Assembly (NCBI RefSeq): GCF_001458695.1
Contig: NZ_LN885086.1
Location: 270,001 to 302,000 of the forward strand
DNA: 32,000 nucleotides
DNA from: Candidatus Nitrospira inopinata
GTDB lineage: Bacteria > Nitrospirota > Nitrospiria > Nitrospirales > Nitrospiraceae
Direction: 5' to 3'
The position numbers were made by a program, and so were the translations under genes. Numbering within the stretch: position 1 is the stretch's first letter; every line of letters begins with the position of its first letter. The notes below the pieces were generated by a model. It searched no databases, was not told where the DNA came from, and worked only from the letters and a program-made list of their open reading frames with translations. Below are positions 9,095-30,402 of this stretch, piece by piece.

Positions 9095-9426
9095 TATCTC
9101 CCCCCTTCGCCCGCGTCGTTTCGCGCCACGCGGATTTCAACCGGAACGGGCCGCGGAACGGAGGGGCTCGCCGGCCTGGAGTTCACCATGACGATCTGCC
9201 CGTCCTGCGGCAACGTCATACCCAGCCGTTCGGTCGCCACTTTGGCGATGCGATCCGGCGCGCTGAGCGCGGACAGTTGCACGCGAAGATGATCGCGCTC
9301 TCGCTCAAGGCGCGTCTTCTCGGCCTTGAGCCGTTGGATCTGGTATCCGACCCGCACGATGTCGCCGCGCTCCCACACAAACGCCAGCACCAGGCACAAG
9401 CCGCCAAGGCAGGCCAGAATCCTCAT
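9094..9426 (-). CDS. ftsL: FtsL-like cell division protein (short bitopic coiled-coil protein)
   Basis: The 176-aa track ORF (9094..9624) overlaps rsmH. The ATG at 9426 gives MRILACLGGLCLVLAFVWERGDIVRVGYQIQRLKAEKTRLERERDHLRVQL..., a TM helix plus coiled coil as expected for FtsL. That ATG overlaps the rsmH stop (ATGA at 9423-9426). The FtsL stop TAG shares one nt with the ftsI GTG. Confidence 0.7.
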   Translation of the reverse strand: MRILACLGGLCLVLAFVWERGDIVRVGYQIQRLKAEKTRLERERDHLRVQLSALSAPDRIAKVATERLGMTLPQDGQIVMVNSRPASPSVPRPVPVEIRVARNDAGEGGR

Positions 9427-13424: not shown

Positions 13425-15440
13425 TCAGCAACAGCCTGACCCATGCGGCAGTGTGAATCTCCCCGCCGAATCATGATCATCCGCGCTCGCGGCCGTCCTG
13501 GTCCGCCCTACCGACCCTCCCCCCGCCGTGATGATCACCTCGCTTGACACGAACGGCTTCTTCAAAACTACATAGCCGTACCATTGCTTCAGGCCGTCGC
13601 TCAAGACGATCGCTCCCAACAGCGCCACCACCCCCACCAGCGCGGCGTCCAGGTACAACGCAAACGCCTGCCCCGCCCCGGCCGCCGACGCCTTCCCAAG
13701 GAACAGCCAAAACATCTCATAGGACCCGCTCAACGTAATCACCCCCACAAAGAGCATGGGCAGCGCCGTCACCCACAGATACGACGACTTCCACATCTTA
13801 ATCAGCACCGTCGTCCCGATACAGAGGGCCAACATGCCCAGCAATTGATTGGCCGCGCCGAACATCGGCCAAATGGTCGAGATACTGCCCGTCCCGATCA
13901 GATAGGCCCACGCTCCCACCACCGCCCCGCTGCTGATCACCACGCCAGGCCACCAATTCATCCGGCGAAACGGCGCATAGATGCGCCCGGTCATTTCCTG
14001 GATCAAATAGCGAGCCACGCGGGTTCCCGTGTCGATCGTCGTCAGGATGAACAAGGCCTCGAACACCAAGGCGAATTGATACCAATAGGCCATCAACCCG
14101 GCCATCCCCGGCAACGCGGTAAAGATCGAGGCCATGCCGACAGCGAGAGACACCGCGCCACCCGGCCGACCGGCTACGTCCACTTCAACCAGTTGCGACA
14201 GCTCGGCGATCCGAGCGGGGGCGAAGCCCATGGCGGCCAAGGCTTCGTTGCTCAATGTCGTGTTGATCGCCAGATAGTCTCCGGGAATCAACACCGACGC
14301 CGCGATCAACGCCATCACGCCGACGAAACTTTCCAAGAGCATGGCGGCATAGCCCACCACCGCCTGCGATTCCCGCTCGATCATCTTGGGCGTCGTGCCC
14401 GACGACACCAACGAATGAAACCCCGAGATCGCCCCGCAGGCGATCGTGATGAACAGAAAGGGAAAGAGTGTCCCGGGAATGATCGGCCCGCCGCCCGCCG
14501 CAAACTGAGTCACGCGCGGCATCTCGATGGTCGGAGCCATGAGGATGACCCCCAGGCCGAGCAGCACGACCACGCCCAATTTCATGAACGTCGAAAGATA
14601 GCCGCGCGGAACCAACAACATCCAGCCGGGCAACACCGACGCCAAAAAACCGTAACCGGCCAACAACCACACCAGCGCCGGTCGGTCAAACTCAAACAGC
14701 CAGGCATAGGGAGACTGGGCGACGACCCGGCCGAACAACACCGCCGCGATGAGCAACAGCACGCCGATCAACGAGACCTCCCCCACCGCTCCGGGACGGA
14801 ATTTCTGGAGATAGAACCCCATCATGAGCCCGATGGGAATCGTCATCGCGATCGTGAAGGTGCCCCAGGCATTGTGGTAGAGCGCGTTCACCACCGCGAA
14901 TCCCAGTCCCGCCAGCGCCACCACCACGATAAACAGCACCGCCACGGCCGTCGCCGTCCCCGTGACCGAACCAAGCTCGTCGTGGGCGATTTCCGGGAGC
15001 GATCGCCCGTTGCGCCTCATCGACGCGACCAAAATGATGAAATCCTGCACCGCGCCGGCCAGCACCGCGCCGATGACGAGCCACAGAAACCCCGGCAGAA
15101 ATCCGAATTGCGCCGCCAACACGGGGCCGAGCAACGGCCCAGCCCCCGCGATCGCCGCAAAGTGATGGCCGAAGAGCACCGCTCCGTTGGTGGGATGAAA
15201 ATTGACGCCGTCGTTCAGCCGCACCGCCGGCGTCACGTGCCGATCGTTCAACTCCACGACCCGGCTTGCCAGCCAGCGACCATAAAATCGATAGGCGAGC
15301 ACATAGATGCAGGCCGCGGCCACGACCAGCCAGAGGCCGTTGACTTTTTCACCTGGATGGACGATTCCCGTTACAAAAGCCAAGGCCGCCGCGCCGACGG
15401 TCGCAAGCACGACCCAAAGGAGATTCATTGCCGCGTTCAT
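13425..15440 (-). CDS. cstA: CstA-family carbon starvation protein (peptide/pyruvate transporter family)
   Basis: Its N-terminus is colinear with E. coli CstA: MN...LWVVLATVGAAALAF...NGLWLVVAAACIYVLAYRFYGRWLA...VTPAVRLNDGVNFHPT...FGHHFAAIAGAGPLLGPVLAAQFG. Candidate starts are 15449, 15440 and 15428. The start at 15551 adds a non-homologous extension. Confidence 0.9.
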   Translation of the reverse strand: MNAAMNLLWVVLATVGAAALAFVTGIVHPGEKVNGLWLVVAAACIYVLAYRFYGRWLASRVVELNDRHVTPAVRLNDGVNFHPTNGAVLFGHHFAAIAGAGPLLGPVLAAQFGFLPGFLWLVIGAVLAGAVQDFIILVASMRRNGRSLPEIAHDELGSVTGTATAVAVLFIVVVALAGLGFAVVNALYHNAWGTFTIAMTIPIGLMMGFYLQKFRPGAVGEVSLIGVLLLIAAVLFGRVVAQSPYAWLFEFDRPALVWLLAGYGFLASVLPGWMLLVPRGYLSTFMKLGVVVLLGLGVILMAPTIEMPRVTQFAAGGGPIIPGTLFPFLFITIACGAISGFHSLVSSGTTPKMIERESQAVVGYAAMLLESFVGVMALIAASVLIPGDYLAINTTLSNEALAAMGFAPARIAELSQLVEVDVAGRPGGAVSLAVGMASIFTALPGMAGLMAYWYQFALVFEALFILTTIDTGTRVARYLIQEMTGRIYAPFRRMNWWPGVVISSGAVVGAWAYLIGTGSISTIWPMFGAANQLLGMLALCIGTTVLIKMWKSSYLWVTALPMLFVGVITLSGSYEMFWLFLGKASAAGAGQAFALYLDAALVGVVALLGAIVLSDGLKQWYGYVVLKKPFVSSEVIITAGGGSVGRTRTAASADDHDSAGRFTLPHGSGCC

Positions 15441-15661
15441 GCGCGGCATCCTATCACAAGTCGACCGGACGACACCCCGCTCATCTCTTCTGTTCGGCAC
15501 GCACGGAGCCTCCGGCAGACCCATGTCCGACGACACGACATCGGATTGCATCAGGAGGACGAGGCGGAAATTATCGGCAGCCGCTTACCTTCCGGGATCA
15601 ATGAATCGGCGGGGCCTGCTCGCACGTTGGTGGGGTTGTCGGGTCAGACGCCGACCCGTGC

Positions 15662-16949: not shown

Positions 16950-17960
16950 TCATCCGGGGGAGCCCACGTTCCCTACTTCTCCGTGGACTTTTTTCTTTCC
17001 CATGACCGCCAGGCAGAGAAGGCCGATGCCGATCCAAACCAGCTCGCGGAATCGCCGCAACAGCGCGAAGGTCAAACCGGTCACCTCGCCGTAGCCGAAC
17101 GCCTTCAGCAACAGCACGTTTCCTCCGTCCTGGGCGCCCAAACTTCCGGGGATAAAAAAAGACCCCCCTTTGATGAAAACGGCGAGCGCGCCGATGGAAA
17201 ACGCCGACAGAATGGTGGTTGGGCCTCCCAAATAGTGCAGAATGACCAGGACTTCCAATGATTCAGCCATCCAGCCGAAAAAATACACGCCGATCGAGAG
17301 ATAGAACACCCGTTGGTGATGGCGGTAGAAATGCAGAATGGTCCGGTCGATGGAGTGCAAATGCTCTTCCTGCGATTCCAGAAACGCGCTTCGCACTCGC
17401 AACGCCCTGGCGACCCCCAAAATCGACGCAAAGAGGCCGCGGCGCTGCACGAAGACGAAACCCGCGATCGAACAGACCAGCACGCCGACGCTCAGCAACG
17501 CTGCCGTCACCGTATAGCCGGCCGAATCTCCCGCGCCCAGCAGCAGAAATCCGAGCGCGATGCCCGTTAAAATGTAGCAGACCTCGGCGATCGTCATGGT
17601 CGTCTTGGCGATCACCACGGAAGCGGCTCCCTCCGCCACCGGCACGTTGTATTTGTTGAGGAGATAGGCCTTGATCGGCTCGCCGCCCAAATAGGCCGTC
17701 GGAGTCGTCATGTTCACGACTTCCCCCGCCGTTCTGATCGCCAGCAGCCGCCAAAACGGCACCGCTCGCCCCGCAGGCCCCAGCACGACTCTCCAGCCGT
17801 AGGCCTCGACCGCGTACATAATGAAAGAGGGAAGGAGGATGACCGCGAGGACCGAGGGGCCGAGCTTGGCGACGGCCTCGTAAATATTCAGGGGACCGAT
17901 GTGCCAAATGAGAAAACCGAGGACGGCGAGACCGAGCGCCAATAAGAAATAGCGAAGCAC
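16950..17960 (-). CDS. Flippase-like polytopic membrane protein of the lysyl-phosphatidylglycerol-synthase TM-region family (MprF N-terminal-like, UPF0104/TIGR00374-like)
   Basis: 336-aa polytopic protein whose pattern matches that family as I recall it: ...YGWRVVLGP...VPFWRLLAIRTAGEVVNMTTPTAYLGGEPIKAYLLNKYNVPVAEGAASVVIAKTTMTIAE... It starts 13 nt after the stop of the CDP-alcohol transferase fusion and is the last gene of the operon. Confidence 0.7.
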   Translation of the reverse strand: MLRYFLLALGLAVLGFLIWHIGPLNIYEAVAKLGPSVLAVILLPSFIMYAVEAYGWRVVLGPAGRAVPFWRLLAIRTAGEVVNMTTPTAYLGGEPIKAYLLNKYNVPVAEGAASVVIAKTTMTIAEVCYILTGIALGFLLLGAGDSAGYTVTAALLSVGVLVCSIAGFVFVQRRGLFASILGVARALRVRSAFLESQEEHLHSIDRTILHFYRHHQRVFYLSIGVYFFGWMAESLEVLVILHYLGGPTTILSAFSIGALAVFIKGGSFFIPGSLGAQDGGNVLLLKAFGYGEVTGLTFALLRRFRELVWIGIGLLCLAVMGKKKVHGEVGNVGSPG

Positions 17961-17973
17961 GCGGGGCTCACGC

Positions 17974-19410
17974 TCAGACGTCGATCGAGGTCACGGCCGA
18001 CGGGCGAACGACCCACACCATGACGCCGGCGAAGAGAAAAGAACCGATCGCCGCAAACCCAAGAAACCATTCCAGCTTGGCGAACAACGCGAACAGCACG
18101 AGCGTCACCGAGAAATCCCGACTGGCGACGTTCTTGAGCATGAAATCCGCCCATGCCGCATCCGACGGCGCCTTCCACCGATTCGCGGCCTTGATTTTCT
18201 GCGCCCGCTCCACCAGCGCAAACGACAACCCGTTTCCCAGCACGGCCGTCGCGCCGAGCGCCAACATGCTCCACGCCCACGGCTGTCCCGTCTGCGCCGT
18301 GTAGAGCCCGACCGCGATACCCGCAAAGATGGCCATGTGCACGAGATTGTCCATAAACAGGTCCAGCCAGGCGCCGAACGGCGATTCGGCGAACGTCAGT
18401 CGCGCCACTTCGCCGTCGCAGCAATCGATGACGGCCGCCAACTGGAACACCAGCGCCGCGGCGACTCCCGCCCCGTAGGTTCCCATAGAAAATCCCGCCG
18501 CGGCCGTAAAGCCGATCAGAGAGGCCACGACCGTAATGACATTGGGAGACAGTCCTGCGGCGAGAAACAGGCGCGTGAACCAACGGGAAACCTTGCGGTT
18601 GAAATACCGATCGACGAACCCCTCCGTGTCGCTCCTCAGGGAGCGGAACAGCTTCTTCTCAGCGATCGGCAGATCGTCGGGAGTTCTGACCGCCTGATAC
18701 CACAGGCCGCGGTCCTCCGCCGTTTCTATGACGCGCACGCGCCCCTCGACCGCCGCCCGTTCCAGCCAACGGCGGATCGGCAGCCGACCGTTCTCCGTCC
18801 CGGCGCCCCGCGCGGCGCTCATCAGACCGGCCGGCAAGACCGCCATTTCGGCGGCGGACGGCGCCGAATCATCGAAATGCGCGGGAGCAAACGACGTCAA
18901 TCGCTCGGCGCGGGTTCTCAGCCGGACGCCTCCGCCCGTCACCGCCTTGGACGATCGCAACGTCGCTTGCGCCACGACCATCGCCTCGCCGTCTCGCGCC
19001 TCTTGCCTGAGATGCTCAATCAAACCTCGCGAGAAGACCGCGTTCGCACTCAAGACAAGGGCGCAGTCGCCCACCTCGGCGCCCAAAAACTCCCACGTCC
19101 TCGGATCATCGAGCGGAAATTCCCGGACCGGCATCCATCGCACGGGGATCGTCACCCGCGGCCCGTTGCACAAGGATTGTTTGAGCTGTTCTTCCTCGGG
19201 ACCGGCCAACACGATCAATTGGCGGATTCCCCCTCGCTGCAACGTGAGGATCGCGCGCTGAAACAGCCCGATTCCCACCACGCTCGTCAGCGGTCCCACT
19301 GCTTCCCTCCGCCGCCCGATCGAATCGCCGAACAAGTCGACCGACGGCAGCAGAATTGCCGTCGTCAATCCTTGGATCCCGACTCGTTTCTGGACAAGAC
19401 TCTCGTTCAT
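17974..19410 (-). CDS. Bifunctional protein: N-terminal nucleotidyltransferase-fold domain plus C-terminal CDP-alcohol phosphatidyltransferase (IPCT/DIPPS-like architecture)
   Basis: The C-terminal half has an exact CDP-OH-P-transferase motif, D-G-x2-A-R-x8-G-x3-D-x3-D (DGEVARLTFAESPFGAWLDLFMD, nt 18349-18417), within about 6 TM helices. The N-terminal ~250 aa resemble an NTP-transferase fold (PLTSVVGIGLFQRAILTLQRGGIRQLIVLAG), but the glycine-rich signature is degenerate (AILLPSVDLFGDSIGRRR). Confidence 0.85.
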   Translation of the reverse strand: MNESLVQKRVGIQGLTTAILLPSVDLFGDSIGRRREAVGPLTSVVGIGLFQRAILTLQRGGIRQLIVLAGPEEEQLKQSLCNGPRVTIPVRWMPVREFPLDDPRTWEFLGAEVGDCALVLSANAVFSRGLIEHLRQEARDGEAMVVAQATLRSSKAVTGGGVRLRTRAERLTSFAPAHFDDSAPSAAEMAVLPAGLMSAARGAGTENGRLPIRRWLERAAVEGRVRVIETAEDRGLWYQAVRTPDDLPIAEKKLFRSLRSDTEGFVDRYFNRKVSRWFTRLFLAAGLSPNVITVVASLIGFTAAAGFSMGTYGAGVAAALVFQLAAVIDCCDGEVARLTFAESPFGAWLDLFMDNLVHMAIFAGIAVGLYTAQTGQPWAWSMLALGATAVLGNGLSFALVERAQKIKAANRWKAPSDAAWADFMLKNVASRDFSVTLVLFALFAKLEWFLGFAAIGSFLFAGVMVWVVRPSAVTSIDV

Positions 19411-19463: not shown

Positions 19464-20183
19464 TCATAATTTCGGCAATACGTCCAATTCGGCTTTTCTC
19501 ACGTCGTCGGGAAAATCGATCTCCGTCCACGGCAACCCGCCGATCCGCTCATAGCCGACCGGGACCGTTTGGAAAAAGGGGAGCAGCGCGTCCTCGTATT
19601 CCATGTTCCACGCCCCTTGATCGACGAACGACCGCAGCGAGTCGATCAAATAGGGGGTGTCGGCGTGCCGCACCCGGAGAAATCCCACACCCTCCCCCGC
19701 AAAGTCATACCGATCCGGCAGCCGTTTCGACAGGGCAATCACGCGCCCGCCCGCCACGGCCACCATACATTCTTCGCCCGTCTGCACGACGGTTTCGTCC
19801 ATCAGCAGGACGCTTTCGTGGGGCGACTCCACCAGGCGCCTGAGAATATCGCGGTGAAAGAGCACGTCCGCGTCCATCACGATCACGTCGTCGTCAAGCG
19901 CCGCGCGGGCGATCCAGAGCGAAGAAATGCTGCCCCGATGAAATTCCTCGTTGACCAGAAAATTTACCGCGACCCCCGAGACATCCCGCCCCACCGCCTG
20001 GCGGATCATCTCCTGCTTGTATCCCACCACGATGTCGGCCCGCTTGATGCCGAGCCACGCCAACGTCTCCAGATAGCGATGGAGCAACGACCGCTCCCCG
20101 ATTTCGATCAGGCACTTGGGACGATGCTGGGTGACCGGCCACAGCCGCTTCCCGACGCCGGCCGCGAGGATGACCGCTTTCAT
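19464..20183 (-). CDS. LicC-like nucleotidyltransferase (candidate phosphonate cytidylyltransferase, PntC-like)
   Basis: MKAVILAAGVGKRLWPVTQHRPKCLIEIGERSLL carries the canonical LAAGxGxRL signature. The C-terminal WTEIDFPDD is LicC-like. The ATG at 20183 overlaps the upstream transaminase stop (ATGA at 20180-20183). Confidence 0.85.
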   Translation of the reverse strand: MKAVILAAGVGKRLWPVTQHRPKCLIEIGERSLLHRYLETLAWLGIKRADIVVGYKQEMIRQAVGRDVSGVAVNFLVNEEFHRGSISSLWIARAALDDDVIVMDADVLFHRDILRRLVESPHESVLLMDETVVQTGEECMVAVAGGRVIALSKRLPDRYDFAGEGVGFLRVRHADTPYLIDSLRSFVDQGAWNMEYEDALLPFFQTVPVGYERIGGLPWTEIDFPDDVRKAELDVLPKL

Positions 20184-21262
20184 ACGGTCCCGCACGCGCG
20201 CTCGAAGGCGCCGAGAAATCCCGTCACCTGCGCTTCGGTCAGCGCCCCCATGTTGGCCACGCGGAAAATCCTGTTTTCCAAATTGCCCTGGCCGGCGTAG
20301 ATGACGTAGCCTTCGGCTTTGAGCCGGTCGTGCAGCGTCCGATAGGACAAGCCTTCGGGCAAATAATACGCCGTGATCGTGTTCGATTGACGATCGTGAG
20401 GGAGCACCGCTTTGACGCCCAGCTTGGCCATGCGTTCGCGAATGACCGCCGCCATTTTCTTGTAGCGTCGAATCCGATTGGCCACCCCCTCTTCCAGCAG
20501 CTCGCTCAAGGCTTCATCAAAGGCGTAGTACACCTGAACCGCCGGCGTGAACGGAATCGTGCCCCGCCCTTCGTCGTCGATATAATGCGTCAGGTGCAGA
20601 TACCACGATCGCTTGGGGTACGACCTCATCCGCTCGACAAATCCCTTGCGCACGAGCACGAACGAGACGCCGGGGAATCCCTGGATGCACTTCCCCGCCG
20701 TGCCCACCACCATGTAAATGTGCGACTTGGCGATATCGAGAGGTTCTCCGGCCAATGCGCTGACGGCATCCAGCACGAAGACGCGATTCTGCCCGTCGAC
20801 GATCTCGGCGATCTCCTGCACCGGGTTGATCAGGCCGGTCGTGGTTTCGTGATGGACCATGGCGACCGCGTGGACCTCCTGATGCTGTCGCAGCGCCAGC
20901 AGCAATTTGTCGGGATCCGGCCGCTCCGTCCAGTCATGCTTCAACTCGCTCACGCCCAAGCGATGGAGCCCGACGATCTGGGACATACGGTCCCCGTAGA
21001 CGCCGTTATTGATGATGAGGACGCGGCGGCCGTGAGGCAACGACGACATCAACGCGGCTTCGACGGCGGCCGTGCCGGACCCGGTGACGACCACCGCCAC
21101 GTAGTCCGACTCCGCTCCCGGCACGAACGCCGTGAGCAGCTTGGCTTGAATGCGGTGCAGCAGTTCCGTGAATTCCGACTCGCGGTGACAGACGTCCGGG
21201 CGCAGCAACGCCTGCCGCACGCGCTCACTGACGTTGACCGGTCCGGGATTGAGAAGGATCAT
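20180..21262 (-). CDS. phnW: 2-aminoethylphosphonate:pyruvate aminotransferase-like class V aminotransferase
   Basis: MILLNPGPVNVSERV... resembles the PhnW N-terminus (LLLTPGPL). The PLP-lysine context GTAGKCIQGFPG matches PhnW SSANKCIQGVPG. An alternative GTG start lies at 21319. Confidence 0.87.
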   Translation of the reverse strand: MILLNPGPVNVSERVRQALLRPDVCHRESEFTELLHRIQAKLLTAFVPGAESDYVAVVVTGSGTAAVEAALMSSLPHGRRVLIINNGVYGDRMSQIVGLHRLGVSELKHDWTERPDPDKLLLALRQHQEVHAVAMVHHETTTGLINPVQEIAEIVDGQNRVFVLDAVSALAGEPLDIAKSHIYMVVGTAGKCIQGFPGVSFVLVRKGFVERMRSYPKRSWYLHLTHYIDDEGRGTIPFTPAVQVYYAFDEALSELLEEGVANRIRRYKKMAAVIRERMAKLGVKAVLPHDRQSNTITAYYLPEGLSYRTLHDRLKAEGYVIYAGQGNLENRIFRVANMGALTEAQVTGFLGAFERACGTV

Positions 21263-21343
21263 CTCGCCTCGCAACCTACGGCGGGAAGGACTCGGCCGCT
21301 CGCCCGTGTTCGGCGGCACGGTCCGTCGCGCCTTCCTTTTTGC

Positions 21344-21922
21344 TCATTCGATGGCTTTCATGAACCGGTTTGTCAGATCGGGGGGGTCGAGCGCGATCCG
21401 CTCCGCCTCCTCCTGAAACTCGTTGACCTTGATCAGCAACATGCTGGGGCCGTCTTTCTTGAGCAGCTCTCGGAACTCGTACACGAGGTCCTCGCGATCG
21501 AGTACCCGGACGACGTTGACGTACCCGGCGGCTTTCGCCACTTTCTCCAACGGCACGACGTTGGAGATCGTCGGCTGATTGCCGGTCGTGCCGTACACTT
21601 CGTTGTCGAAGACCACGTGGATGAAATTTTTCGGCTTCAACGCTCCGACCGTCGCCAAGGTCCCCATGCCCATGAGCACGTTGCCGTCGCCGTCGAACGT
21701 CACGACCTGCTTGTGCGGCTTGGCCAACGCAACACCCAGCGCGATGGCCGGGGCATTGCCCATCGACCCGATCATGTAAAAATGCGTCGGACGGTCGGCG
21801 ATTTTCTGCGTCTCGCGCGACGGAAACCCGTTGCAGACGACGACCGGCTGATCGGTCAACAGTTCCAGCAACGCCCCGATCGCCTGGGCGCGGCTGATCA
21901 AGGTGCCTTCTTCCGGCCTCAT
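21344..21922 (-). CDS. Phosphonopyruvate (sulfopyruvate-type) decarboxylase, beta subunit (ThDP-binding PP domain)
   Basis: 192 aa with the ThDP motif GDGNVLMGMGTLATVGALKPKNFIHVVFDNE (GDG-x24-27-N). GAGAGGA lies 5 nt upstream of the ATG at 21922. Its size and order match ComE-like beta subunits. Confidence 0.87.
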   Translation of the reverse strand: MRPEEGTLISRAQAIGALLELLTDQPVVVCNGFPSRETQKIADRPTHFYMIGSMGNAPAIALGVALAKPHKQVVTFDGDGNVLMGMGTLATVGALKPKNFIHVVFDNEVYGTTGNQPTISNVVPLEKVAKAAGYVNVVRVLDREDLVYEFRELLKKDGPSMLLIKVNEFQEEAERIALDPPDLTNRFMKAIE

Positions 21923-22039: not shown

Positions 22040-22537
22040 TCACGGATGGAGCCCCTTCACGACCCCCTTCGTGATCAGGAGCGCCACCGGAATCCGTCTA
22101 TTGTGATAGACATCCGCCACCCAGGCAAAGTCTTCCTTCGCCGTTTTCTCCGACAAGGTCCGATGCGGAATGGTCATCGTATCCAGAAACTGCGGCAGGA
22201 CCTGGCCCATGATCAGATGCTCCGGCGCGTCTTTTCCTCCGTAGCCCCTCCACGACACGATCAGAATGCAAGGCTGGCGGTAAATCATGTTCAACGAAAT
22301 CAACGTATTGAGCGACGTTCCCAACCCCGAATTTTGCATCAACACCGCCGGCATCTTGCCCGCCATATAGGCGCCGGCCGCCATGCCCACCGCCTCGTCC
22401 TCCCGCACCGCGGGAATGTACAACCCGCGATTCATAAGCTCGGCGATGATGCCGCCCAGAATCGAGTCGGGTACTCCGGTAAAAAAATTCACTCCCATCG
22501 CCTGGAGAGACTGAACAAACTCGTCGCCGTCGATCAT
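22040..22537 (-). CDS. Phosphonopyruvate (sulfopyruvate-type) decarboxylase, alpha subunit (ThDP pyrimidine-binding domain)
   Basis: MIDGDEFVQSLQAMGVNFFTGVPDSILGG...REDEAVGMAAGAYMAGKMPAVLMQNSGLG is typical of the N-terminal PYR domain of ComD/Ppd. The ATG at 22537 (AAGGTG 7 nt upstream) lies downstream of the mapped promoter. The track ORF start at 22699 lies upstream of that promoter. Confidence 0.85.
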   Translation of the reverse strand: MIDGDEFVQSLQAMGVNFFTGVPDSILGGIIAELMNRGLYIPAVREDEAVGMAAGAYMAGKMPAVLMQNSGLGTSLNTLISLNMIYRQPCILIVSWRGYGGKDAPEHLIMGQVLPQFLDTMTIPHRTLSEKTAKEDFAWVADVYHNRRIPVALLITKGVVKGLHP

Positions 22538-22603
22538 GTCTCGCACCTTGTTTCCGCTTCCCCGTCGGGAAGTCGCTGGCCGAAGCATCCGGAGAAGTGG
22601 CGC

Positions 22604-22632
22604 ATTATAGGCCAGCGTCTCTTCATTCTCAA
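22604..22632 (-). promoter_or_regulatory. Strong sigma70-type promoter TTGAGA-17-TATAAT for the six-gene phosphonate operon
   Basis: Minus strand: the -35 TTGAGA (22632-22627), an exact 17-nt spacer, then a perfect -10 TATAAT (22609-22604). The predicted TSS is near 22597, about 60 nt upstream of the alpha-subunit ATG. Confidence 0.6.
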
Positions 22633-22758
22633 GAAACGCGACGCCGAAAAGAGGTCGGTTGCGCGAGATTTTCTTCCATGGTAGATAGCGTTCGATCACA
22701 CTGCGCGAGGCCGTTCTTTTTATTTGTTATTTTTATTACAGACCTCGTTTTGAACGCC

Positions 22759-23289
22759 ATGAACGACGCCGGTTCGCCATCGTGGGGCCTGGGGCTTGTA
22801 TCGCTTTTCCTGTGTTTGGCCCTTCCCGCGAACCCGTCGTGGGCCGTTCCGATGCTGAACGATCCCAAAGGATTTCACGACATTCCATGGGGAAGTCCGC
22901 TCGCGGCGCGGGACGACTTGGAAGTACTGCGAGCCGGAGCCCACATCACGGAATACCGGCCCAAAAATCGGGAGACGACGTTCGCCGGCGTCGAGATGAC
23001 GAGCATCCTGTACGTGGCGTTCGACGATCAATTCGCTCGGGTGACCATTCGCTACGAGGGAGACTTAGTCCACAAGCACGTGCTCGATTTCCTGGAAACC
23101 CGGCACGGCCCTCTCCAACGGATCCCCGGACAGATGACGCGCGGACTCAACCAACAATACACATGGCGCGGATCGGACACCGAAATCACCCTCACCTATC
23201 AAGCCGGCACGGAACGCGGCTTCATTTTTATCGACAGTCGATCCCTCGCGCCGCGATTCAACGACGACCTGACCGACTCGGCGGAATAA
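22759..23289 (+). CDS. Hypothetical secreted protein (176 aa) between the two arms of the phosphonate locus
   Basis: The ATG at 22759 gives the signal peptide MNDAGSPSWGLGLVSLFLCLALPANPSWA|VPML. The upstream part of the track ORF overlaps the divergent promoter and gene. I recognise no family. An AT-rich stretch (22715-22740) precedes it. Confidence 0.55.
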   Translation: MNDAGSPSWGLGLVSLFLCLALPANPSWAVPMLNDPKGFHDIPWGSPLAARDDLEVLRAGAHITEYRPKNRETTFAGVEMTSILYVAFDDQFARVTIRYEGDLVHKHVLDFLETRHGPLQRIPGQMTRGLNQQYTWRGSDTEITLTYQAGTERGFIFIDSRSLAPRFNDDLTDSAE

Positions 23290-23490: not shown

Positions 23491-23520
23491 TTGACATCCC
23501 GCCCGCCGCTTTCGCATGAT
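23491..23520 (+). promoter_or_regulatory. Candidate promoter TTGACA-18-CATGAT immediately upstream of, and overlapping, the pepM-fusion start region
   Basis: TTGACA at 23491-23496 and CATGAT at 23515-23520. The in-frame ATG at 23528 ([11 protein letters not shown]...) begins 7 nt after the -10, which is a leaderless-type arrangement. Confidence 0.35.
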
Positions 23521-25204
23521 GGCGCCCATGACCAATGCCGCCAAGCTCCGAGCCGCCCTCAAACGACCCGGCGCCCTGAAAATCGTCGGCGCCCACGACG
23601 CGCTGAGCGCCCGCCTTATCGAACGCGCGGGTTTCGACGGCATTTGGGTCGGCGGGTTCGCCGTGTCGGCCTCGCTGAAGTGCATTCCGGACGCCAGCTT
23701 CATCGATTCGAGCGAGCAGCTCGCCATCGAGCGCAACATCGTCGAGGCGGTCGGCATCCCCGTCATCGCCGATTGCGACACCGGCTATGGAAACGCGCTG
23801 AACGTCATGCGGACCGTCAACGACCGCGAACGGGCCGGCGTCGCCGGCATCTGCATCGAGGACAACGTCTACCCTAAACGATGCAGTTTCTACGCGGGCG
23901 TCCGCCGGGAGCTGATTCCCATCGAGGAGCATTGCAGCAAGATCAAGGCGGCGAAAGCGGCGCAGATGTTCCCCGACTTCGTGGTCATCGCGAGAACGGA
24001 AGCGTTGATCGCGGGGTGGGGACAGGCAGAGGCGCTGAAGCGGGCTGAGGCCTACGCCGAAGCGGGAGCCGACGCGGTGCTCATCCACTCGAAATCGAAA
24101 AAGTTCGACGAGCTGCGGGCCGTCTATCGCGCCTGGTCCGGCCGCGTGCCCCTGGTCGTCGTGCCCACGATCTTCGACCAGACCACGGCGGCGGAGATGG
24201 AGGAGGCGGGCGCCAAAATCATCATCTATGCCAACCAACCGGTGCGGGCGGCCATCCGCGCGATGCGGGACGCGCTCCGTCTCATCAAACAAGACACCCG
24301 CCCCGGAGCCGCCAACGACATCATCGTCCCGCTTCAGGAAGTGTACGATATCGTCGGCGTCCCGCAAATGGAACGGGATGAACGGGAATTCCTGCCCGTG
24401 GGCGGCGAAAAAATCACCGCCATCATCGCCGCCGCGGGGTTCGAAAAGCAGTTGCTGCCGCTGATCGAAGACAAGCCCAAGTGTTTGCTGGACATCAAAG
24501 GCAAGACGATCCTCGACCGCCAGGTGGCGGCGCTCAACGAATGCAACATCAAAGACATCGCGCTCGTGCGCGGGTACAAAAAAGAAGCCATCGCGTTACC
24601 CAATATCCGCTATTACGACAACGACCGGTACGAAACCACGGGCGAATTGTTCTCGCTGTTCTGCGCCGAAAACGAGCTGAGGGGGCGGATCATCGTCCTC
24701 TACGGCGACATCATCTTCGATACGGCCATTCTCGAGAAATTACTGAAGAGCCCCGCCGATATTTCCATCGTGGTGGACTTGGCCTGGTTCGACCAGCATC
24801 AGCGCCACGCTCAGGCCGCCCATCCGAATCCGGACCTCGTCTCCCTCGCCGAACCGCCGGGCAAGAGCTATCTCTCTCGGTTCATCATGTCCGAAGGGGA
24901 GCATCGCGTCGTCAAGATCGGTCGGCACGTGCCCTCGGAGGAGGCGCATGGAGAATTCATCGGCATGGCCATGTTCTCCGAGAAAGGGACGCAAGCGCTT
25001 CGCGACTGCTACCGGTCGGCGCAAGAGTCCGCCCGCTCCATCGGCTTCCACGAAGCCGCCGACCTGACCACGGCCTCGTTCACCGACATGATTCAAGAAC
25101 TGATCGACCGCGGCCACCGGGTCGAGGCCGTTCCGATTTTCAAAGGGTGGACGGAAGTCGATTCGTTCGAGGAGTATCAGAAAGCCTGGGCCAAAATCCG
25201 ATAG
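23516..25204 (+). CDS. pepM: Fusion protein: PEP-mutase-like domain (aa ~1-290) plus LicC-like nucleotidyltransferase domain (aa ~298-562)
   Basis: The N-terminal half is colinear, without gaps, with Mytilus PEP mutase as I recall it ([28 protein letters not shown], [40 protein letters not shown]). The catalytic loop reads [10 protein letters not shown] instead of EDKxxxxxNS. The C-terminal half resembles LicC ([34 protein letters not shown]...GWTEVD). The start may be 23528 rather than 23516. Confidence 0.88.
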   Translation: [562 protein letters not shown]

Positions 25205-25345
25205 AGCGGCCTCCGTTCCCCCTGCGAATCGCCTTCTTTTCTTTTCCGCGCCACGGCGCGCCGGTTGATCCGTCTCCGTGAAATCTCATTTTTCTTAGCG
25301 AAACGGGGGCGGTGTGCTACAACAGCTTCGGATCAACGCCTGTTT

Positions 25346-25753
25346 ATGGAACGAGCACGGAACGGACAAACGTTTAGAACGCGGGCGCGGGAAGACAGCC
25401 GCCACGCGGAACGGATCGCCTACACGTGCCCCGTTTCCTTTACGGGTGAGATTCCCTCCCAACCCCATCAGGGCGAAGGCCTGACCAAGGATATCTCCGT
25501 CACCGGGCTCAAAATCGTCAGCACCCAGCCGGTCACCCGCGGAACCCTTTTGACCCTCTCTCTCGCGCTCCCGGACGGACACCCTCCGCTTCGGATTTAC
25601 TCCGCTCACGTCGTCTGGGTCTCCGGCGTCCATTTTTCCGTTCGCTTCATGCACCTGAGCCGAGAGCATCGCAAACGGATCCTTTCCTTTGTCCTGCGAA
25701 ATATCGGCAAAGAGGCGATGAACGATCACTGGAGCCGCTTCAAGATCGCCTGA
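25346..25753 (+). CDS. PilZ-domain protein (putative c-di-GMP receptor)
   Basis: An RxxxR motif (REDSR) is followed about 30 aa later by DxSxxG (DISVTG). This is a single-domain protein of ~135 aa from the ATG at 25346. The track ORF start at 25265 is less likely. Confidence 0.8.
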   Translation: MERARNGQTFRTRAREDSRHAERIAYTCPVSFTGEIPSQPHQGEGLTKDISVTGLKIVSTQPVTRGTLLTLSLALPDGHPPLRIYSAHVVWVSGVHFSVRFMHLSREHRKRILSFVLRNIGKEAMNDHWSRFKIA

Positions 25754-26000: not shown

Positions 26001-27188
26001 ATGAGCCGCCTCCTCCGACATCCGATCATTGCGCTCGGCGTCATCCTCCTCATTGCCGTGGTCGGCCTGGTCGTCTTTCGTCTGGGGACCGACGCCGACC
26101 CCACTCAGCGGAAAGCCTCCCGCCCCGTGGTGGGCACGATGATCCCGATCAAAGAAGATCTTGACGTCTACCTTTCCTACACGGCCGACGTCCTGCCCAA
26201 CCAGGTCGTCAACGTCTTTTCGCGCGTGGACGGATACATCGCCAAACTGCACGTGGACAAGGGTGATTTCGTGAAACGCCACCAACTGCTGATTGAAATC
26301 GACCACACCGACTATCGGCACGCCGTCGATCAAGCCAAAGCCAATCTCGCCGCCGCAAGCGCCAAAGTCTCGCAGCAACGCGCGGTGCTGCGCAACGCGA
26401 CGCTCACGCTCGATCGCATGAAAGCCTTGATCCAGGACCAATTCGTCTCGCAACAGGACCTTGATACCGCACAAGTGAACGTTGACGCCGCGGCGGCGGC
26501 GCTGGAGTCCCTCCAAGCCCAGGTCAAGCAAATGGAAGTCGCCCTGGCCCAAGCGGAAACCAACTTGGCGTACTCGTACATCAGAGCCCCCTTCGCCGGC
26601 TATATCGCCGAGCGCAATCTCGACGAGGGCGCCTACGTGACCGGCACCACCGCCAGCACCTCGACCTTGTCTCGCGGCATCTTGAGTCTTCATGACATCG
26701 ACACGGTGCGCGTCCTGATCGACGTGGTCGAAAAAGAAGTGCCGCTGATCAGGATCGGGCAAAAGGCCGAGCTGCGGACCGAGGCCTATCCGGAAGAGGC
26801 GTTCGAAGGAACGGTGGCGCGCGTCGCCCAGACCCTCAATCGAACCACCCGCGCCATGCCGGTGGAGATCGACGTGGTCAACGCGGATCGCCGGCTGAAG
26901 GGCGGCATGTTCGCGCGGGTCAAGGTCCACGTCGGCACCCATCAGATGGCCGTCCAACTTCCCATCGACGCGGTGAGCAGAGTGGAGGACGCGCAATACG
27001 TCTTCATCGTGCGAGACGGTCTGGCCCGTCGCACGGCCGTCGAGACCGGCGCCCGCAACGGAAACTGGGTCGAGATCACCGACGGCCTGGTCGGCGACGA
27101 AGAAGTCATCGTGTCCGGAAAGGACATCGTGCGCGACGGCGCCGCCGTGCAGACGCAGCCGTTGAAGCCGCTGAAAGGTGAAGGGTGA
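26001..27188 (+). CDS. RND efflux periplasmic adaptor (membrane fusion protein, HlyD/AcrA family)
   Basis: It has an N-terminal TM anchor, a lipoyl-like VFSRVDGYIAKLHVDKGDFVKRHQLLIEID, and coiled-coil hairpin repeats (DYRHAVDQAKANLAAASAKV...DLDTAQVNVDAAAAALESLQAQV). It lies directly upstream of the RND pump. Confidence 0.9.
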   Translation: MSRLLRHPIIALGVILLIAVVGLVVFRLGTDADPTQRKASRPVVGTMIPIKEDLDVYLSYTADVLPNQVVNVFSRVDGYIAKLHVDKGDFVKRHQLLIEIDHTDYRHAVDQAKANLAAASAKVSQQRAVLRNATLTLDRMKALIQDQFVSQQDLDTAQVNVDAAAAALESLQAQVKQMEVALAQAETNLAYSYIRAPFAGYIAERNLDEGAYVTGTTASTSTLSRGILSLHDIDTVRVLIDVVEKEVPLIRIGQKAELRTEAYPEEAFEGTVARVAQTLNRTTRAMPVEIDVVNADRRLKGGMFARVKVHVGTHQMAVQLPIDAVSRVEDAQYVFIVRDGLARRTAVETGARNGNWVEITDGLVGDEEVIVSGKDIVRDGAAVQTQPLKPLKGEG

Positions 27189-27240
27189 TCGACCGTTCCG
27201 AAGGAGCGGCGCCCGGTTTTCCGCGCCGTAGAGCCCGACC

Positions 27241-30200
27241 ATGTGGCTGACCCTGTTCGCGTTGCGCAACCGCATCGGCATCTTGATGCTGTCGTGCGCC
27301 ATGGTCGTGCTCGGCGTCATCTCGCTCCAGCGGTTGCCCATCGATCTGTTTCCGCAAATTCAAGTCCCCGTGGCGTTCGTCGGCGTCGTCTACAAGGGCG
27401 CTCCCCCGCTCGACATCGAGCAAAGCGTCGTGTATCCCATCGAAAAGGCCGTGAGCTCGGCGTCGAACGTCGAACACGTCGAATCCTTCTCCAAACAAGG
27501 ACTCGGCGCCGTGCAAATCTGGTTCAACTGGGGCGCCGACATCAACGTCGGGCAAATGGAAGTCATGCAGCGCGTCACCCAGATTCTGAGCAGTCTTCCG
27601 CCCGGCATTTTGCAGCCGTTCATCGTCAAGTTCGACGTCTCGAACATCCCGGTCTCGCTCGTCACGATCTCCGGCGAGGACCTGGACGAACGCGCGCTCT
27701 ACGATCTGGCCTATAACACCATCGCCCCGCAGATCGAGCAGATCGCCGGCGTCGCCGCGGCCACGGTGGAGGGGGGAAAAATCCGTCAGATCAACGTCAA
27801 CCTCGACCCGGCCCTCTTGGGCGCGCGCGGGCTTTCGATTCTCGACGTGGTCGCCGCCGTCAAGACGGCCAACGTGATTCTGCCGTCCGGCAACATCAAG
27901 GCCGGCAACCTGGACTACAACGTGTTCACGAATTCGCAGTTCAAGGCCGTCGAGCCGATTCAAGACGTGATCGTGAAGGTCGACGATCGCGGGAACCCGG
28001 TCCGCATCCGCGACGTGGGCACGGTGTCGGACTCGTCCGACATTCAAACCAATATCGTCCGAACGGACGGCGCCAGGTCCGTCTTCCTCCGCGTCAACAA
28101 ACAGCCGCAGGCCAACACCGTCCAGGTGGTCGACTCGCTGCGAGAGGCCATCCCACGATTGATCGGCATCCCGCCGGGCGTGAAACTCGGCATCTCCTTC
28201 GATCAATCCGTCTATATTCGACAGGCCATTCGCAATCTGATCGAGCAGGCGATGCACGGTTCGCTGTTGGCCGCGGCCGTCATTTTGATTTTCCTTCGCA
28301 ACCTGACCAGCACGTTGATCATCTCCGTTTCCATCCCGCTCTCCATTCTGGTCACCCTCGTCGTGCTCGATCTGAGCGGCCAGACGCTCAACGTCTTTAC
28401 GATGGGCGGCCTCGCGCTGGGAGTCGGCCGTCTCGTCGACGATTCCATCGTCGAGCTCGAAAACATTCAACGGCACCTCAACACCGCGTCTCGGCGTTGG
28501 GACGCCGTGTTGGACGCGGCACGGGAAGTGGCGATGCCGATCTTCGCCTCGACTGTCACCACCGTCGTGGTGTTCCTTCCCGTTTTCTTTATCGTGGGCA
28601 TCACCCGCCTTCTGCTGATTCCGCTCACGCTCACGATCGCCATCGCCCTGTTTACGTCGTTCTTCATTTCCCGCACCGTCACGCCGGCGCTCTGCTACAA
28701 ATTTCTCAAACCCGAAGGGGACGCGCTTCGCGATATGCCGATGTGGGTTGCGCGGATCATGGAATGGAGCCGCGACCGCTATGCCGCTCTTGACCAAAGC
28801 TACGAAACGTCGCTGCAATGGGTCTTGCGGCACCGCCGGCTCTTCATCTCCGCCGTGCTGGTCATCTTCGCCGGTTCCCTTGCGTTGCTGCCGAGAATCG
28901 GAACGGAATTTCTTCCGGTATCGGATGAAAGCCAGTTCCGCATCGTATTGCGAGCCCCCGTCGGCCAGCGCGTCGAAAAAACGGCCCGGCAGGTCGAGGA
29001 AGTCGAGCGCGTCCTCTGCGAAAACATTCCTGCTCATGAGTTGGAGACGATCGTGTCCAGCACGGGCGTGCTCACGCAGGGGCGCGCGTCCCTCTTCAAT
29101 CCCAACAGCGGCCCCCACACGTCATGGATCCAAGTCTATCTGTCCTCGCCGGACAAGCGGACCAGAAACCAGGTAGAGATCATGAACGACGTGCGTCCGA
29201 AAGTCGCCAATCTGTTTCCCGGCGTGGCCATGTACTTCGATCCCGGCGGCCTCGTCAAACGAGTGACCAGCTTCGGTTCGCAGAAAGCCGTGGACGTCGA
29301 GATCTACGGATACGATTTCGAGCAAGCCAGAAGCGTGATCGGCCGCGTCAAGGAGATCATGGAACGGACGCCGGGCCTGGCCGACATCGAACCCAGTCGG
29401 GAGGAGAATTATCCGGAGGTCAACGTGATCGTCGATCGCGAAAAGGCGGCGCTCCTCGGCGTCACCGAAGCCGACGTGGCCAACACGGTGCTGTTTTCCT
29501 TGAACGGCAACGGACAAACCGATCCCATCATTTATACGGACCCGCAAAACGGCAACGAGTACTTCATCAGCGCGTGGCTGGCCGAGGAGCATCGAAAAGA
29601 TCTGACCGATCTGGAGAACATCCTCGTGCCCACGAAATCAGGACCGCCCGTCCTGTTGAAAAACGTGGCCTCTCTTCGATTAAACGCCGGCCCCGTCAAG
29701 ATCGACCGCAAATCGTTTCAGCGCGTGGTCCACATCACGGCGAACCCGACGACCAGACCATTGGGCGACATCGCCGCCGATCTGGAATCGGCGTTCGCCT
29801 CCCTCCAACTGCCGGCTGGGTTCAGCGTCAAACTGGCCGGTCAGATCGAGCAGCAGCGGGAGACCTTTCGAGGTCTCCTCTTCGCGAGCGTCCTGGCCCT
29901 GGTGCTCGTCTATATGGTCATGGCCGCGCAGTTTAAGTCGCTCGTCGATCCGTTCATCATCATGTTCTCGGTGCCGATGGGCTTTCCCGGCGTCATCCTG
30001 ATGTTGTTCCTGACGAAGACCACGCTTTCCACGACCTCCATGATGGGCGTCATCATGATGCTCGGCATCGTGGTCTCCAACGGCGTGTTGTTGGTCGATT
30101 ACACGAACGTGCTACGGCGAAGGGGTCGACCGTTGCGGGAGGCGGTGACCGCGGCCGCTCGGACGCGTCTGAGGCCGATCCTCATGACGTCGCTCGCGAC

Positions 30201-30402
30201 CGTGTTCGGTCTGCTCCCCATGGCGATCGGCCTCGGAACCGGAGGAGAAACGAACGCGCCGCTGGCCCGGGCGGTCGTGGGGGGACTGAGCGTCTCCACG
30301 CTCCTGACGCTGTTTCTCATTCCGACGATGTACGTGATCTTGGAAGAACGATTCCCCAGAAAAGCGGAGGACGACCAGGCGTTCTCCTCGGCGTCCGTTT
30401 AA
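27241..30402 (+). CDS. RND-family efflux pump, inner-membrane permease (AcrB/AcrD/AcrF family)
   Basis: 1053 aa with the typical N-terminus FALRNRIGILMLSCAMVVLGVISLQRLPIDLFPQI, two large periplasmic loops and a 12-TM layout. It also has conserved ...GGLALGVGRLVDDSIVELENI... and ...MMLGIVVSNGVLLVDY... segments. Confidence 0.95.
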   Translation: MWLTLFALRNRIGILMLSCAMVVLGVISLQRLPIDLFPQIQVPVAFVGVVYKGAPPLDIEQSVVYPIEKAVSSASNVEHVESFSKQGLGAVQIWFNWGADINVGQMEVMQRVTQILSSLPPGILQPFIVKFDVSNIPVSLVTISGEDLDERALYDLAYNTIAPQIEQIAGVAAATVEGGKIRQINVNLDPALLGARGLSILDVVAAVKTANVILPSGNIKAGNLDYNVFTNSQFKAVEPIQDVIVKVDDRGNPVRIRDVGTVSDSSDIQTNIVRTDGARSVFLRVNKQPQANTVQVVDSLREAIPRLIGIPPGVKLGISFDQSVYIRQAIRNLIEQAMHGSLLAAAVILIFLRNLTSTLIISVSIPLSILVTLVVLDLSGQTLNVFTMGGLALGVGRLVDDSIVELENIQRHLNTASRRWDAVLDAAREVAMPIFASTVTTVVVFLPVFFIVGITRLLLIPLTLTIAIALFTSFFISRTVTPALCYKFLKPEGDALRDMPMWVARIMEWSRDRYAALDQSYETSLQWVLRHRRLFISAVLVIFAGSLALLPRIGTEFLPVSDESQFRIVLRAPVGQRVEKTARQVEEVERVLCENIPAHELETIVSSTGVLTQGRASLFNPNSGPHTSWIQVYLSSPDKRTRNQVEIMNDVRPKVANLFPGVAMYFDPGGLVKRVTSFGSQKAVDVEIYGYDFEQARSVIGRVKEIMERTPGLADIEPSREENYPEVNVIVDREKAALLGVTEADVANTVLFSLNGNGQTDPIIYTDPQNGNEYFISAWLAEEHRKDLTDLENILVPTKSGPPVLLKNVASLRLNAGPVKIDRKSFQRVVHITANPTTRPLGDIAADLESAFASLQLPAGFSVKLAGQIEQQRETFRGLLFASVLALVLVYMVMAAQFKSLVDPFIIMFSVPMGFPGVILMLFLTKTTLSTTSMMGVIMMLGIVVSNGVLLVDYTNVLRRRGRPLREAVTAAARTRLRPILMTSLATVFGLLPMAIGLGTGGETNAPLARAVVGGLSVSTLLTLFLIPTMYVILEERFPRKAEDDQAFSSASV

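Follow-up and report, generated by a model that had tools for sequence, protein, structure and literature searches.

Phosphoenolpyruvate (PEP) mutase (PepM, also called Ppm), which converts PEP to phosphonopyruvate, is commonly told apart from the rest of the isocitrate lyase superfamily by the gating-loop motif E-D-K-x5-N-S (EDKx5NS), a filter that reportedly originates with Yu et al. 2013. Here we analyse a 32,000-nucleotide stretch of the Candidatus Nitrospira inopinata genome (assembly GCF_001458695.1, contig NZ_LN885086.1, positions 270,001 to 302,000 of the forward strand; hereafter, the window), in which a 562-residue protein joins an N-terminal PEP mutase-like domain (the query) to a C-terminal nucleotidyltransferase-like domain and carries the sequence EDNVYPKRCS in place of that motif. 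We find that the altered loop marks a conserved subfamily, referred to below as EDN-CS, and on the strength of sequence comparisons we consider its mutase domain to be probably functional.

Several described systems serve as the yardstick. Canonical PepM (TIGR02320; structures 1M1B/1PYM and 5UNC) has the Mg2+ ligands D58, D85, D87 and E114 (Mytilus numbering), R159 and H190, and the loop residues K120 and S123; its genes keep company with those for phosphonopyruvate decarboxylase (Ppd), 2-aminoethylphosphonate (AEP) transaminase, an FrbC-like synthase or a 2-hydroxyacid dehydrogenase, and it is often fused to a PF12804 nucleotidyltransferase. Phosphonopyruvate hydrolase (PPH/PalA; TIGR02321; 2DUA) keeps the EDK, continues its loop with D-T-S, and is found in a catabolic setting together with PalB/LysR, a phosphonoalanine aminotransferase and a transporter. 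In the C-C lyases (methylisocitrate lyase, petal death protein, dimethylmalate lyase and isocitrate lyase) the loop reads K-[KR]-C-G-H. Finally, the Ppm-PntC fusions of Pnt pathways, in which a mutase is followed by a PF12804 LicC-like nucleotidyltransferase, resemble the Nitrospira protein in domain order and in cluster logic; unlike it, they have been defined by the presence of EDKx5NS (PMC6697681). In the underlying RefSeq survey, 883 of the 905 fused PF13714 proteins were motif-positive Ppm, whereas only 22 of the 26,231 motif-negative PF13714 proteins carried a fusion of any kind (Rice et al. 2019, PMC6697681).

A perfect EDKx5NS has been demanded for PepM by Rice 2019 (PMC6697681), Li & Horsman 2022, Acker 2022 and a 2025 actinomycete genome-mining study. 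The Acker et al. 2020 preprint applied a relaxed rule, accepting up to two missing motif residues if the gene lies beside Ppd or MpnS, and under that rule variant-loop cases were glimpsed, though not described. In the open literature that we searched for a variant motif or a non-canonical PepM, no description of the EDN..KRCS loop was found.

A variant gating loop in a mutase-type active site

The original prediction had placed an altered loop at residues 115-124 of the fusion, and nucleotides 23858-23887 do read GAG GAC AAC GTC TAC CCT AAA CGA TGC AGT. A phmmer search against all PDB sequences aligned this loop without gaps to EDKRFPKVNS of the Streptomyces PepM 5UNC (E 2e-82), to Mytilus PepM 1M1B and to EDKTFPKDTS of PPH 2DUA. 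The gapless match to the Mytilus flanking sequence that the prediction had given is borne out by 1M1B, and agreement with three solved homologues rules out a hidden indel that would restore the EDKx5NS register.

In Mytilus numbering the loop differs from canonical PepM by Lys116 to Asn, Thr121 to Arg and Asn122 to Cys (N117, R122 and C123 of the query), the first and the last of which had been predicted; the diagnostic motif is absent, and gating-loop Lys120 and Ser123 are kept. The prediction had also noted that the gating-loop Lys matters for catalysis in the Mytilus enzyme: the residue stressed there, Lys120, persists here as Lys121, and it is Lys116, in the 'EDK', that is missing. Its description of the loop as a hybrid of a mutase scaffold and a lyase-type K-R-C is accurate at the level of sequence: Cys123 shares its alignment column with both the catalytic Cys of the lyases and Asn122 of PepM, P-K-R-C falls in register with the lyase loop, and an amide residue follows E-D in both (Asn in the query, Gln in the lyases). 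Unlike the lyases, however, the query has S-F-Y and not G-H after the Cys, and identity to them is ~30%.

The fold is of the PEP_mutase/ICL type, as judged by the PF13714 match (E 7e-59) and by an AlphaFold2 (AF2) model with a predicted local distance difference test (pLDDT) score of 94.8. Template modelling (TM) scores of the model are 0.95 to 5UNC, 0.94 to Mytilus PepM 1PYM, 0.92 to PPH and ~0.87 to methylisocitrate lyases. Modelling of the gating loop had been suggested as a check, and loop residues 121-130 have a pLDDT of 73, as expected of a mobile lid. By sequence and by fold alike, the best PDB matches are PepM first (38-49% identity), PPH second (44% identity) and the lyases third. The Mg2+ site (D59, D86, D88 and E115 of the query) and the phosphoryl-binding R160 and H191 are all present, and PPH shares with the query this active-site core, Phe48 and the replacement of Asn122 (Thr in PPH).

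Residue counts and a tree were obtained from 224 domain sequences, comprising the hits, the best 150 cluster representatives at 50% identity from an exhaustive HMMER search and four PDB sequences. In the 101 EDN-CS sequences W44, D58, D85, D87, E114, K120, S123, R159, E161, H190, T217, N239 and R243 (Mytilus numbering) are 97-100% conserved. Arg159 is kept but is common to lyase-like sequences also. Positions 161, 190, 239 and 243 are Glu, His, Asn and Arg in the query, whereas lyase-like sequences have Asp at 161, Ile or Glu at 190 and other residues at 239 and 243. What sets the subfamily apart is N116, R121 (91%), C122, Y125 (100%) and F48 (98%; Leu in PepM, Phe in PPH). Judged from the alignments and the model, the PepM/PPH type extends to the fold, to the acidic residues that bind Mg2+, to the Arg and His that bind the phosphoryl group and to the Lys and Ser of the loop.

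Among curated profiles the query scores 264.8 bits against PepM TIGR02320 (cut-off 319.55), 253.6 bits against PPH TIGR02321 (cut-off 374.4), 195 bits against the methylisocitrate lyase (prpB) model (cut-off 354) and 41 bits against the isocitrate lyase model (cut-off 276). In a neighbour-joining (NJ) tree rooted on the lyases, PepM, PPH, EDN-CS and variant sequences separate from the lyase-like sequences in 96% of 200 bootstraps, and the query groups with PepM/PPH, which is the outcome of the alignment to curated sets and the phylogeny that the prediction had called for. Neither the tree nor the curated models place it firmly in a known non-mutase family. All 79 of the 79 non-redundant EDK..NS sequences form one clade, and most EDN-CS sequences, the query included, fall outside it. 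Monophyly of EDN-CS was recovered in 17% of bootstraps only (F of at least 0.9), and PPH nested within EDN-CS in 22%. From these sequences, EDN-CS appears to be a distinct subfamily, which is either the sister of the canonical PepM clade or branches basally to it.

Conservation and spread of the EDN-CS subfamily

We collected relatives as the 120 closest 90%-identity clusters from a 5.8-billion-protein collection, reaching down to 51% identity. ED[NS]..PK.CS is present in 115 of them, with the subfamily consensus EDN-x-[FY]-P-K-[RK]-C-S-[FL]-Y. Named sources among these clusters are Nitrospirales, Rokubacteria, Binatia, Tectomicrobia, Deltaproteobacteria, Firmicutes and Aspergillus violaceofuscus; JGI calls several of the relatives 'phosphoenolpyruvate phosphomutase', and NCBI gives a generic family name. 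For the Nitrospiraceae we used the best 80 loci from a scan of one genome per GTDB species, labelled Nitrospira/Nitrospiraceae apart from one 'Nitrospirota', one 'uncultured bacterium' and one 'Planctomycetaceae' metagenome-assembled genome (MAG), and including the complete N. moscoviensis genome. EDN[VI]YPKRCSFY is found in all 80. The Cys is encoded by TGC in 67 loci and by TGT in 13, and the Asn by AAC in 65 and by AAT in 15; since these are synonymous changes at conserved residues, they point to purifying selection on both the loop Asn and the loop Cys. The variant loop is almost invariant over sequences as far apart as ~36% pairwise identity, and a one-off mutation or a sequencing error is ruled out by the hundreds of sequences with the same loop together with the synonymous codon variation.

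The loop types of the 150 best 50%-identity representatives comprise 89 EDK..NS, 21 ED[NS]..CS and 22 that retain Asn122 without Lys116, reading EDN, EDQ, EDH, EDS, EDG or EDA. On these counts the K116/N122 pair is less universal than the EDKx5NS motif implies, and a strict EDK filter would also discard the Asn122 proteins that lack Lys116 (EDN, EDQ or EDH ..PK.NS). Some of the latter are fused proteins, carrying a D-2-hydroxyacid dehydrogenase (P0206), a Fom1-type cytidylyltransferase (P0196), a PF12804 domain (P0162) or an AMP-binding enzyme (P0149, P0180). By their family matches, some of the fused domains are typical of phosphonate pathways, and those that join a mutase to 2-hydroxyacid dehydrogenase or to AMP-binding enzyme have the look of first steps in unexplored pathways.

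A few relatives have Ser in the place of the loop Cys (EDNVFPKRSS): P0066 (L171 8001-8921), and also P0112 and P0119. Directly downstream of the P0066 gene come a fused Ppd and a nucleotidyltransferase.

EDN-CS genes in phosphonate gene clusters

The mutase-like domain is fused to a LicC/PntC-like nucleotidyltransferase in 58 of the 115 EDN-CS clusters, many of which are truncated, and in 80 of the 80 Nitrospiraceae genes; many other members stand alone. In the window protein the C-terminal domain has the PF12804/LicC-like fold with an N-terminal nucleotide-binding motif (PF12804 E 9e-10). Its best PDB match is the CTP:phosphocholine cytidylyltransferase LicC (1JYK, E 1e-10), and it matches Tde1415 PntC (6PD1) weakly. 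From the fusion and the cluster setting alone, we infer that its substrates are AEP and cytidine triphosphate (CTP).

The original prediction had argued from adjacent Ppd and AEP transaminase genes, and profile scores identify both: a split thiamine pyrophosphate (TPP)-dependent decarboxylase and a TIGR03301-type transaminase (Table 1). The alpha and beta subunits of the decarboxylase adjoin the EDN-CS gene in the window and in 74 of the 80 Nitrospiraceae loci. The block from the decarboxylase to an LPG_synthase_TM-family gene is transcribed divergently from the mutase fusion gene and is syntenic in 63-74 of the 80 loci, many of which are short or truncated by the contig end. Whereas the setting of PPH is catabolic, the window cluster, with Ppd, AEP transaminase, nucleotidyltransferases and a CDP-alcohol transferase, is of a biosynthetic kind.

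A search for other EDN...KRCS proteins beside Ppd, another check that the prediction had proposed, found them in the Nitrospiraceae and in loci of other lineages as well. Outside Nitrospira, EDN-CS genes lie beside a split or fused Ppd, with or without AEP transaminase (L087, L089-L091, L094-L096, L104), beside an HMGL-like FrbC/Pms-type synthase together with the large and small subunits of aconitase (L088), and beside a D-2-hydroxyacid dehydrogenase together with a nucleotidyltransferase-aminotransferase fusion (L081/L082). Judged from gene content, EDN-CS genes fill the slot of PepM beside three mechanistically unrelated consumers of phosphonopyruvate. In none of the EDN-CS loci examined, the 80 Nitrospiraceae loci included, was a second, canonical PepM found, a result that covers the loci and not whole genomes. 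Furthermore, the architecture of the window cluster (PepM-nucleotidyltransferase fusion, nucleotidyltransferase, CDP-alcohol transferase, LPG_synthase_TM, Ppd and AEP transaminase) also occurs with a canonical EDK..TNS PepM (L107, L122, L126, L133, L134, L137, L143). Because identical cluster architecture occurs with either, EDN-CS and canonical mutases look interchangeable within one pathway. Split decarboxylase subunits like those of the window likewise flank canonical EDK..NS PepMs (L150, L155-L166).

Probable function of the variant mutase-like domain

Taking the sequence evidence together, we regard it as likely that the N-terminal domain is a working PEP mutase whose gating loop departs from the canonical motif. 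The original prediction had left two options, a PepM subclass that motif-based surveys would miss and a different chemistry on a phosphonate or PEP-like substrate. The conserved subfamily, the PepM/PPH active site, the occupation of the PepM slot and the nucleotidyltransferase fusion favour the former, and the latter is the less favoured of the two; the prediction's further argument, from the adjacent Ppd and AEP transaminase genes, that phosphonopyruvate is still made is likewise supported by the sequence data.

In the pathway that we propose, the mutase domain would convert PEP to phosphonopyruvate, and the adjacent split decarboxylase would pull the unfavourable equilibrium towards phosphonoacetaldehyde, from which the aminotransferase would form AEP. 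Activation of AEP as CMP-AEP would then fall to the fused LicC/PntC-like domain, to the second nucleotidyltransferase or to the two together, and the CDP-alcohol transferase and the LPG_synthase_TM-family protein would place AEP on a lipid or a cell-surface acceptor. Within the loop, Arg122 may stand in for the positive charge lost at Lys116. Sequences that have lost Lys116 tend to have a basic residue, Arg or Lys, at position 121 (Fisher p 4e-17 overall), also among the Asn122 sequences alone (14/23 vs 16/79, p 4e-4), in a test that ignores phylogeny; the association is compatible with a relocated positive charge. Cys123, which is Ser in some relatives, may take over from Asn122 close to the phosphoryl group as it migrates, serving as a small polar residue. 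We favour such a small polar role over an obligatory thiol-specific one because Ser replaces Cys in a Ppd-linked relative.

Several points weigh against a functional mutase. The query scores below the curated cut-offs of both the PepM and the PPH models, and the overall association of Lys116 loss with a basic residue at 121 carries the limit just given. Asn122 is regarded as important for phosphoryl handling in PepM, and its replacement could alter the outcome of the reaction; when PPH is explained as a hydrolase and not a mutase, an Asn-to-Thr change is also the difference most often invoked (PMC7916636). In the lyases the aligned Cys serves as general acid/base (C123S methylisocitrate lyase structures 1XG3/1XG4), and a proton donor near C3 could favour hydrolysis. 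As for gene context, a single distant member, a stand-alone EDN-CS gene of a Firmicutes MAG (P0108; L083 6844-10276), is flanked by a divergent regulator of the LysR type and by an ABC solute-binding protein and has no Ppd; this setting looks catabolic, and by gene context the subfamily may be functionally heterogeneous. The Aspergillus gene (L086) has no informative neighbours and no phosphonate context. Nor are there informative neighbours around another EDN-CS gene, on a eukaryotic-looking contig with sparse genes and an oxysterol-binding-protein gene.

An alternative that we hold to be rather unlikely is that EDN-CS proteins are evolutionary and mechanistic intermediates between the C-C lyases and the phosphomutases, in which a K-R-C loop of the lyase type sits on a mutase active site and the Cys does chemistry that canonical PepM lacks. 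The residue may then form a transient S-phosphocysteine during phosphoryl migration, switch C-P bond formation by redox or thiol control, or confer dual mutase/hydrolase activity. In that case the family would represent a new catalytic route to C-P bonds, and phosphonate production by Nitrospira and by many uncultured lineages of soil and sediment would have gone uncounted.

It is improbable, in our view, that EDN-CS proteins are instead phosphonopyruvate (or PEP) hydrolases, or have another catabolic or editing activity, with the loop Cys protonating C3 of the pyruvate enolate after P-C cleavage, in the manner of its counterpart in the C-C lyases. The almost equal scores of the query against the PPH and PepM models, the nesting of the PPH clade among EDN-CS sequences in the base NJ tree (though in only 22% of bootstraps), the Phe48 common to both groups, the catabolic-looking Firmicutes member and the place of the substitution, at the very position most often invoked for mutase versus hydrolase activity, would all fit such a role. 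A hydrolase fused to a PntC-like activating enzyme would, however, make little sense, and if the sole PEPM-family gene beside Ppd, AEP transaminase, an FrbC-like synthase or a 2-hydroxyacid dehydrogenase encoded a hydrolase, these clusters would be left without a source of phosphonopyruvate. Moreover, PPH differs from the query in keeping the EDK and in its D-T-S (EDN..PK-R-C-S in the query): Mytilus positions 121, 192 and 238 are Asp, Arg and Gly in 2DUA, compared with Arg, Lys and Ala here, of which Lys192 and Ala238 are those of canonical PepM, and the Ser variant at the Cys position also adjoins Ppd.

We consider it very improbable that the domain acts on a non-phosphorus analogue or performs lyase-type C-C chemistry, for instance in a sulfopyruvate-related step that feeds a ComDE-like decarboxylase, so that the cluster makes no phosphonate. 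The decarboxylase subunits do score similarly against sulfopyruvate and Ppd models (186 vs 170 bits for beta, 112 vs 130 bits for alpha, all below cut-off), and the K-R-C of the loop resembles the lyases. Against this, His190, Glu161, Asn239 and Arg243 are of the PepM/PPH type and lyase-like sequences differ at all four, the G-H that follows the lyase Cys is absent, the prpB and isocitrate lyase models score much lower, canonical PepMs are flanked by a similar split decarboxylase, and the transaminase is of the AEP type (348 bits). Enzymes of this fold are not known to take a PEP-like precursor to sulfopyruvate, which counts against this explanation too.

Finally, it is scarcely credible that the domain with the altered loop is catalytically dead or has a structural role alone, kept as a scaffold for the nucleotidyltransferase: two residues of the field's diagnostic motif are indeed missing, but the metal and substrate ligands are all conserved, the loop hardly varies over distant homologues despite synonymous codon turnover, and many members stand alone, with no fused partner.

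Implications for motif-based inventories

Since EDN-CS proteins fail both the defining motif and the curated cut-off, they should not be filed as canonical PepM, though on sequence grounds they most probably work like one. If the EDN..CS domain is an active mutase, EDKx5NS-based inventories undercount phosphonate producers, and a whole genus of nitrite oxidisers of global importance would escape such surveys. Lys116 and Asn122 would then be dispensable for C-P bond formation, and the structure-function picture of the gating loop would need revision. The finding would revise a widely used diagnostic rule and bring Nitrospira and other lineages into the ranks of the phosphonate producers, most likely leaving the chemistry and the pathway logic unchanged. 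The natural variants at the two positions (N/C, N/S, N/N and K/N) offer a set for dissecting mutase, hydrolase and lyase activity.

For Nitrospira the proposed pathway predicts an AEP-decorated lipid or surface molecule, which is unreported in the literature that we searched. We found no paper there linking Nitrospira to PEP mutase, Ppd, phosphonolipid or aminoethylphosphonate, one merely mentioning Nitrospira alongside pepM, and the supplements of the two Horsman-lab surveys yielded nothing on Nitrospira.

The gene cluster and its surroundings

The features of the window are collected in Table 1; the last four entries, which lie outside the cluster, are ordinary genes. The true start of the decarboxylase alpha subunit is probably near residue 55 of the listed open reading frame (ORF).

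Table 1. Coordinates within the window of the mutase fusion gene, its parts, the divergent gene block and further neighbours
Feature	Coordinates	Strand	Evidence or remarks
562-residue fusion ORF	23516..25204	+	PF13714 at residues 12-257 (E 7e-59), PF12804 at residues 320-418; fusion in 80/80 Nitrospiraceae loci
PEP-mutase/PPH-type TIM-barrel domain, residues 1-295	23516..24400	+	Profile scores, 5UNC match, AF2 model
Gating-loop motif E115-D-N117-V-Y-P-K121-R122-C123-S124, replacing EDKx5NS	23858..23887	+	Ungapped alignment
C-terminal nucleotidyltransferase domain, residues ~300-562, LicC/PntC-like	24413..25204	+	PF12804, IspD and NTP_transferase matches from residue 300
Phosphonopyruvate-decarboxylase-type TPP enzyme, alpha (N-terminal)	22040..22699	-	TPP_enzyme_N; TIGR03297 Ppd 129.9 bits, sulfopyruvate decarboxylase alpha 112.3 bits, both below cut-off
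Phosphonopyruvate-decarboxylase-type TPP enzyme, beta (C-terminal)	21344..21922	-	TPP_enzyme_C; TIGR03846 186 bits, TIGR03297 170 bits, both below cut-off
AEP aminotransferase	20180..21319	-	TIGR03301 PhnW-AepZ 348.2 bits (cut-off 360.8), E 6e-104
Second, stand-alone nucleotidyltransferase	19464..20195	-	PF00483, PF12804; in 66/80 Nitrospiraceae loci
478-residue protein, C-terminal CDP-alcohol phosphatidyltransferase domain, IPCT/DIPPS-like	17974..19410	-	PF01066 at residues 288-447; NF041135 94.6 bits; syntenic in 66/80 loci
LPG_synthase_TM-family membrane protein, cluster end	16950..17960	-	PF03706 E 8e-36; syntenic in 63/80 loci
PilZ-domain protein	25265-25753	+	
Probable two-gene efflux system: 395-residue ORF, then 1053-residue multi-pass membrane ORF	26001-30402	+	Judged from sequence alone
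MraW and PBP genes of division/cell-wall cluster	7370-10358	-	
Carbon-starvation protein CstA	13425-15551	-	

The best named relative of the 478-residue protein is the bifunctional IPCT/DIPPS of Thermococcales. The pair of CDP-alcohol transferase and LPG_synthase_TM genes also accompanies canonical PepM clusters (L107, L122, L133, L134, L137, L143), and this recurrence suggests a shared, uncharacterised route that would attach AEP to a lipid or a polyol. Between the divergent decarboxylase and mutase genes lies a 230-residue ORF (22597-23289, + strand) that has a signal peptide-like hydrophobic stretch and no Pfam match, and that overlaps the Ppd alpha ORF at its annotated 5' end.

We also considered, and dropped, a role for the loop Cys in an arsenoenolpyruvate mutase forming a C-As bond: the window has no ars genes, and in the bisenarsan pathway the C-As step is assigned to a phosphoglycerate-mutase homologue and not to a PEPM-family enzyme (PMC12159101).

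Two further observations come from metagenomic contigs. A protein of ~315-320 residues with weak matches to prenyltransferase/squalene-hopene-cyclase repeats is encoded near stand-alone EDN-CS genes on two unrelated contigs, immediately downstream in one (L088 8926-9870) and after two short ORFs in the other (L170 9729-10694). Elsewhere, a lyase-type PEPM-family gene (EDQTLPKRCGHL; L110 3371-4282) and aconitase subunit genes stand directly upstream of a canonical PepM-nucleotidyltransferase fusion (5176-6801), Ppd and AEP transaminase, which makes two members of the superfamily in one cluster.

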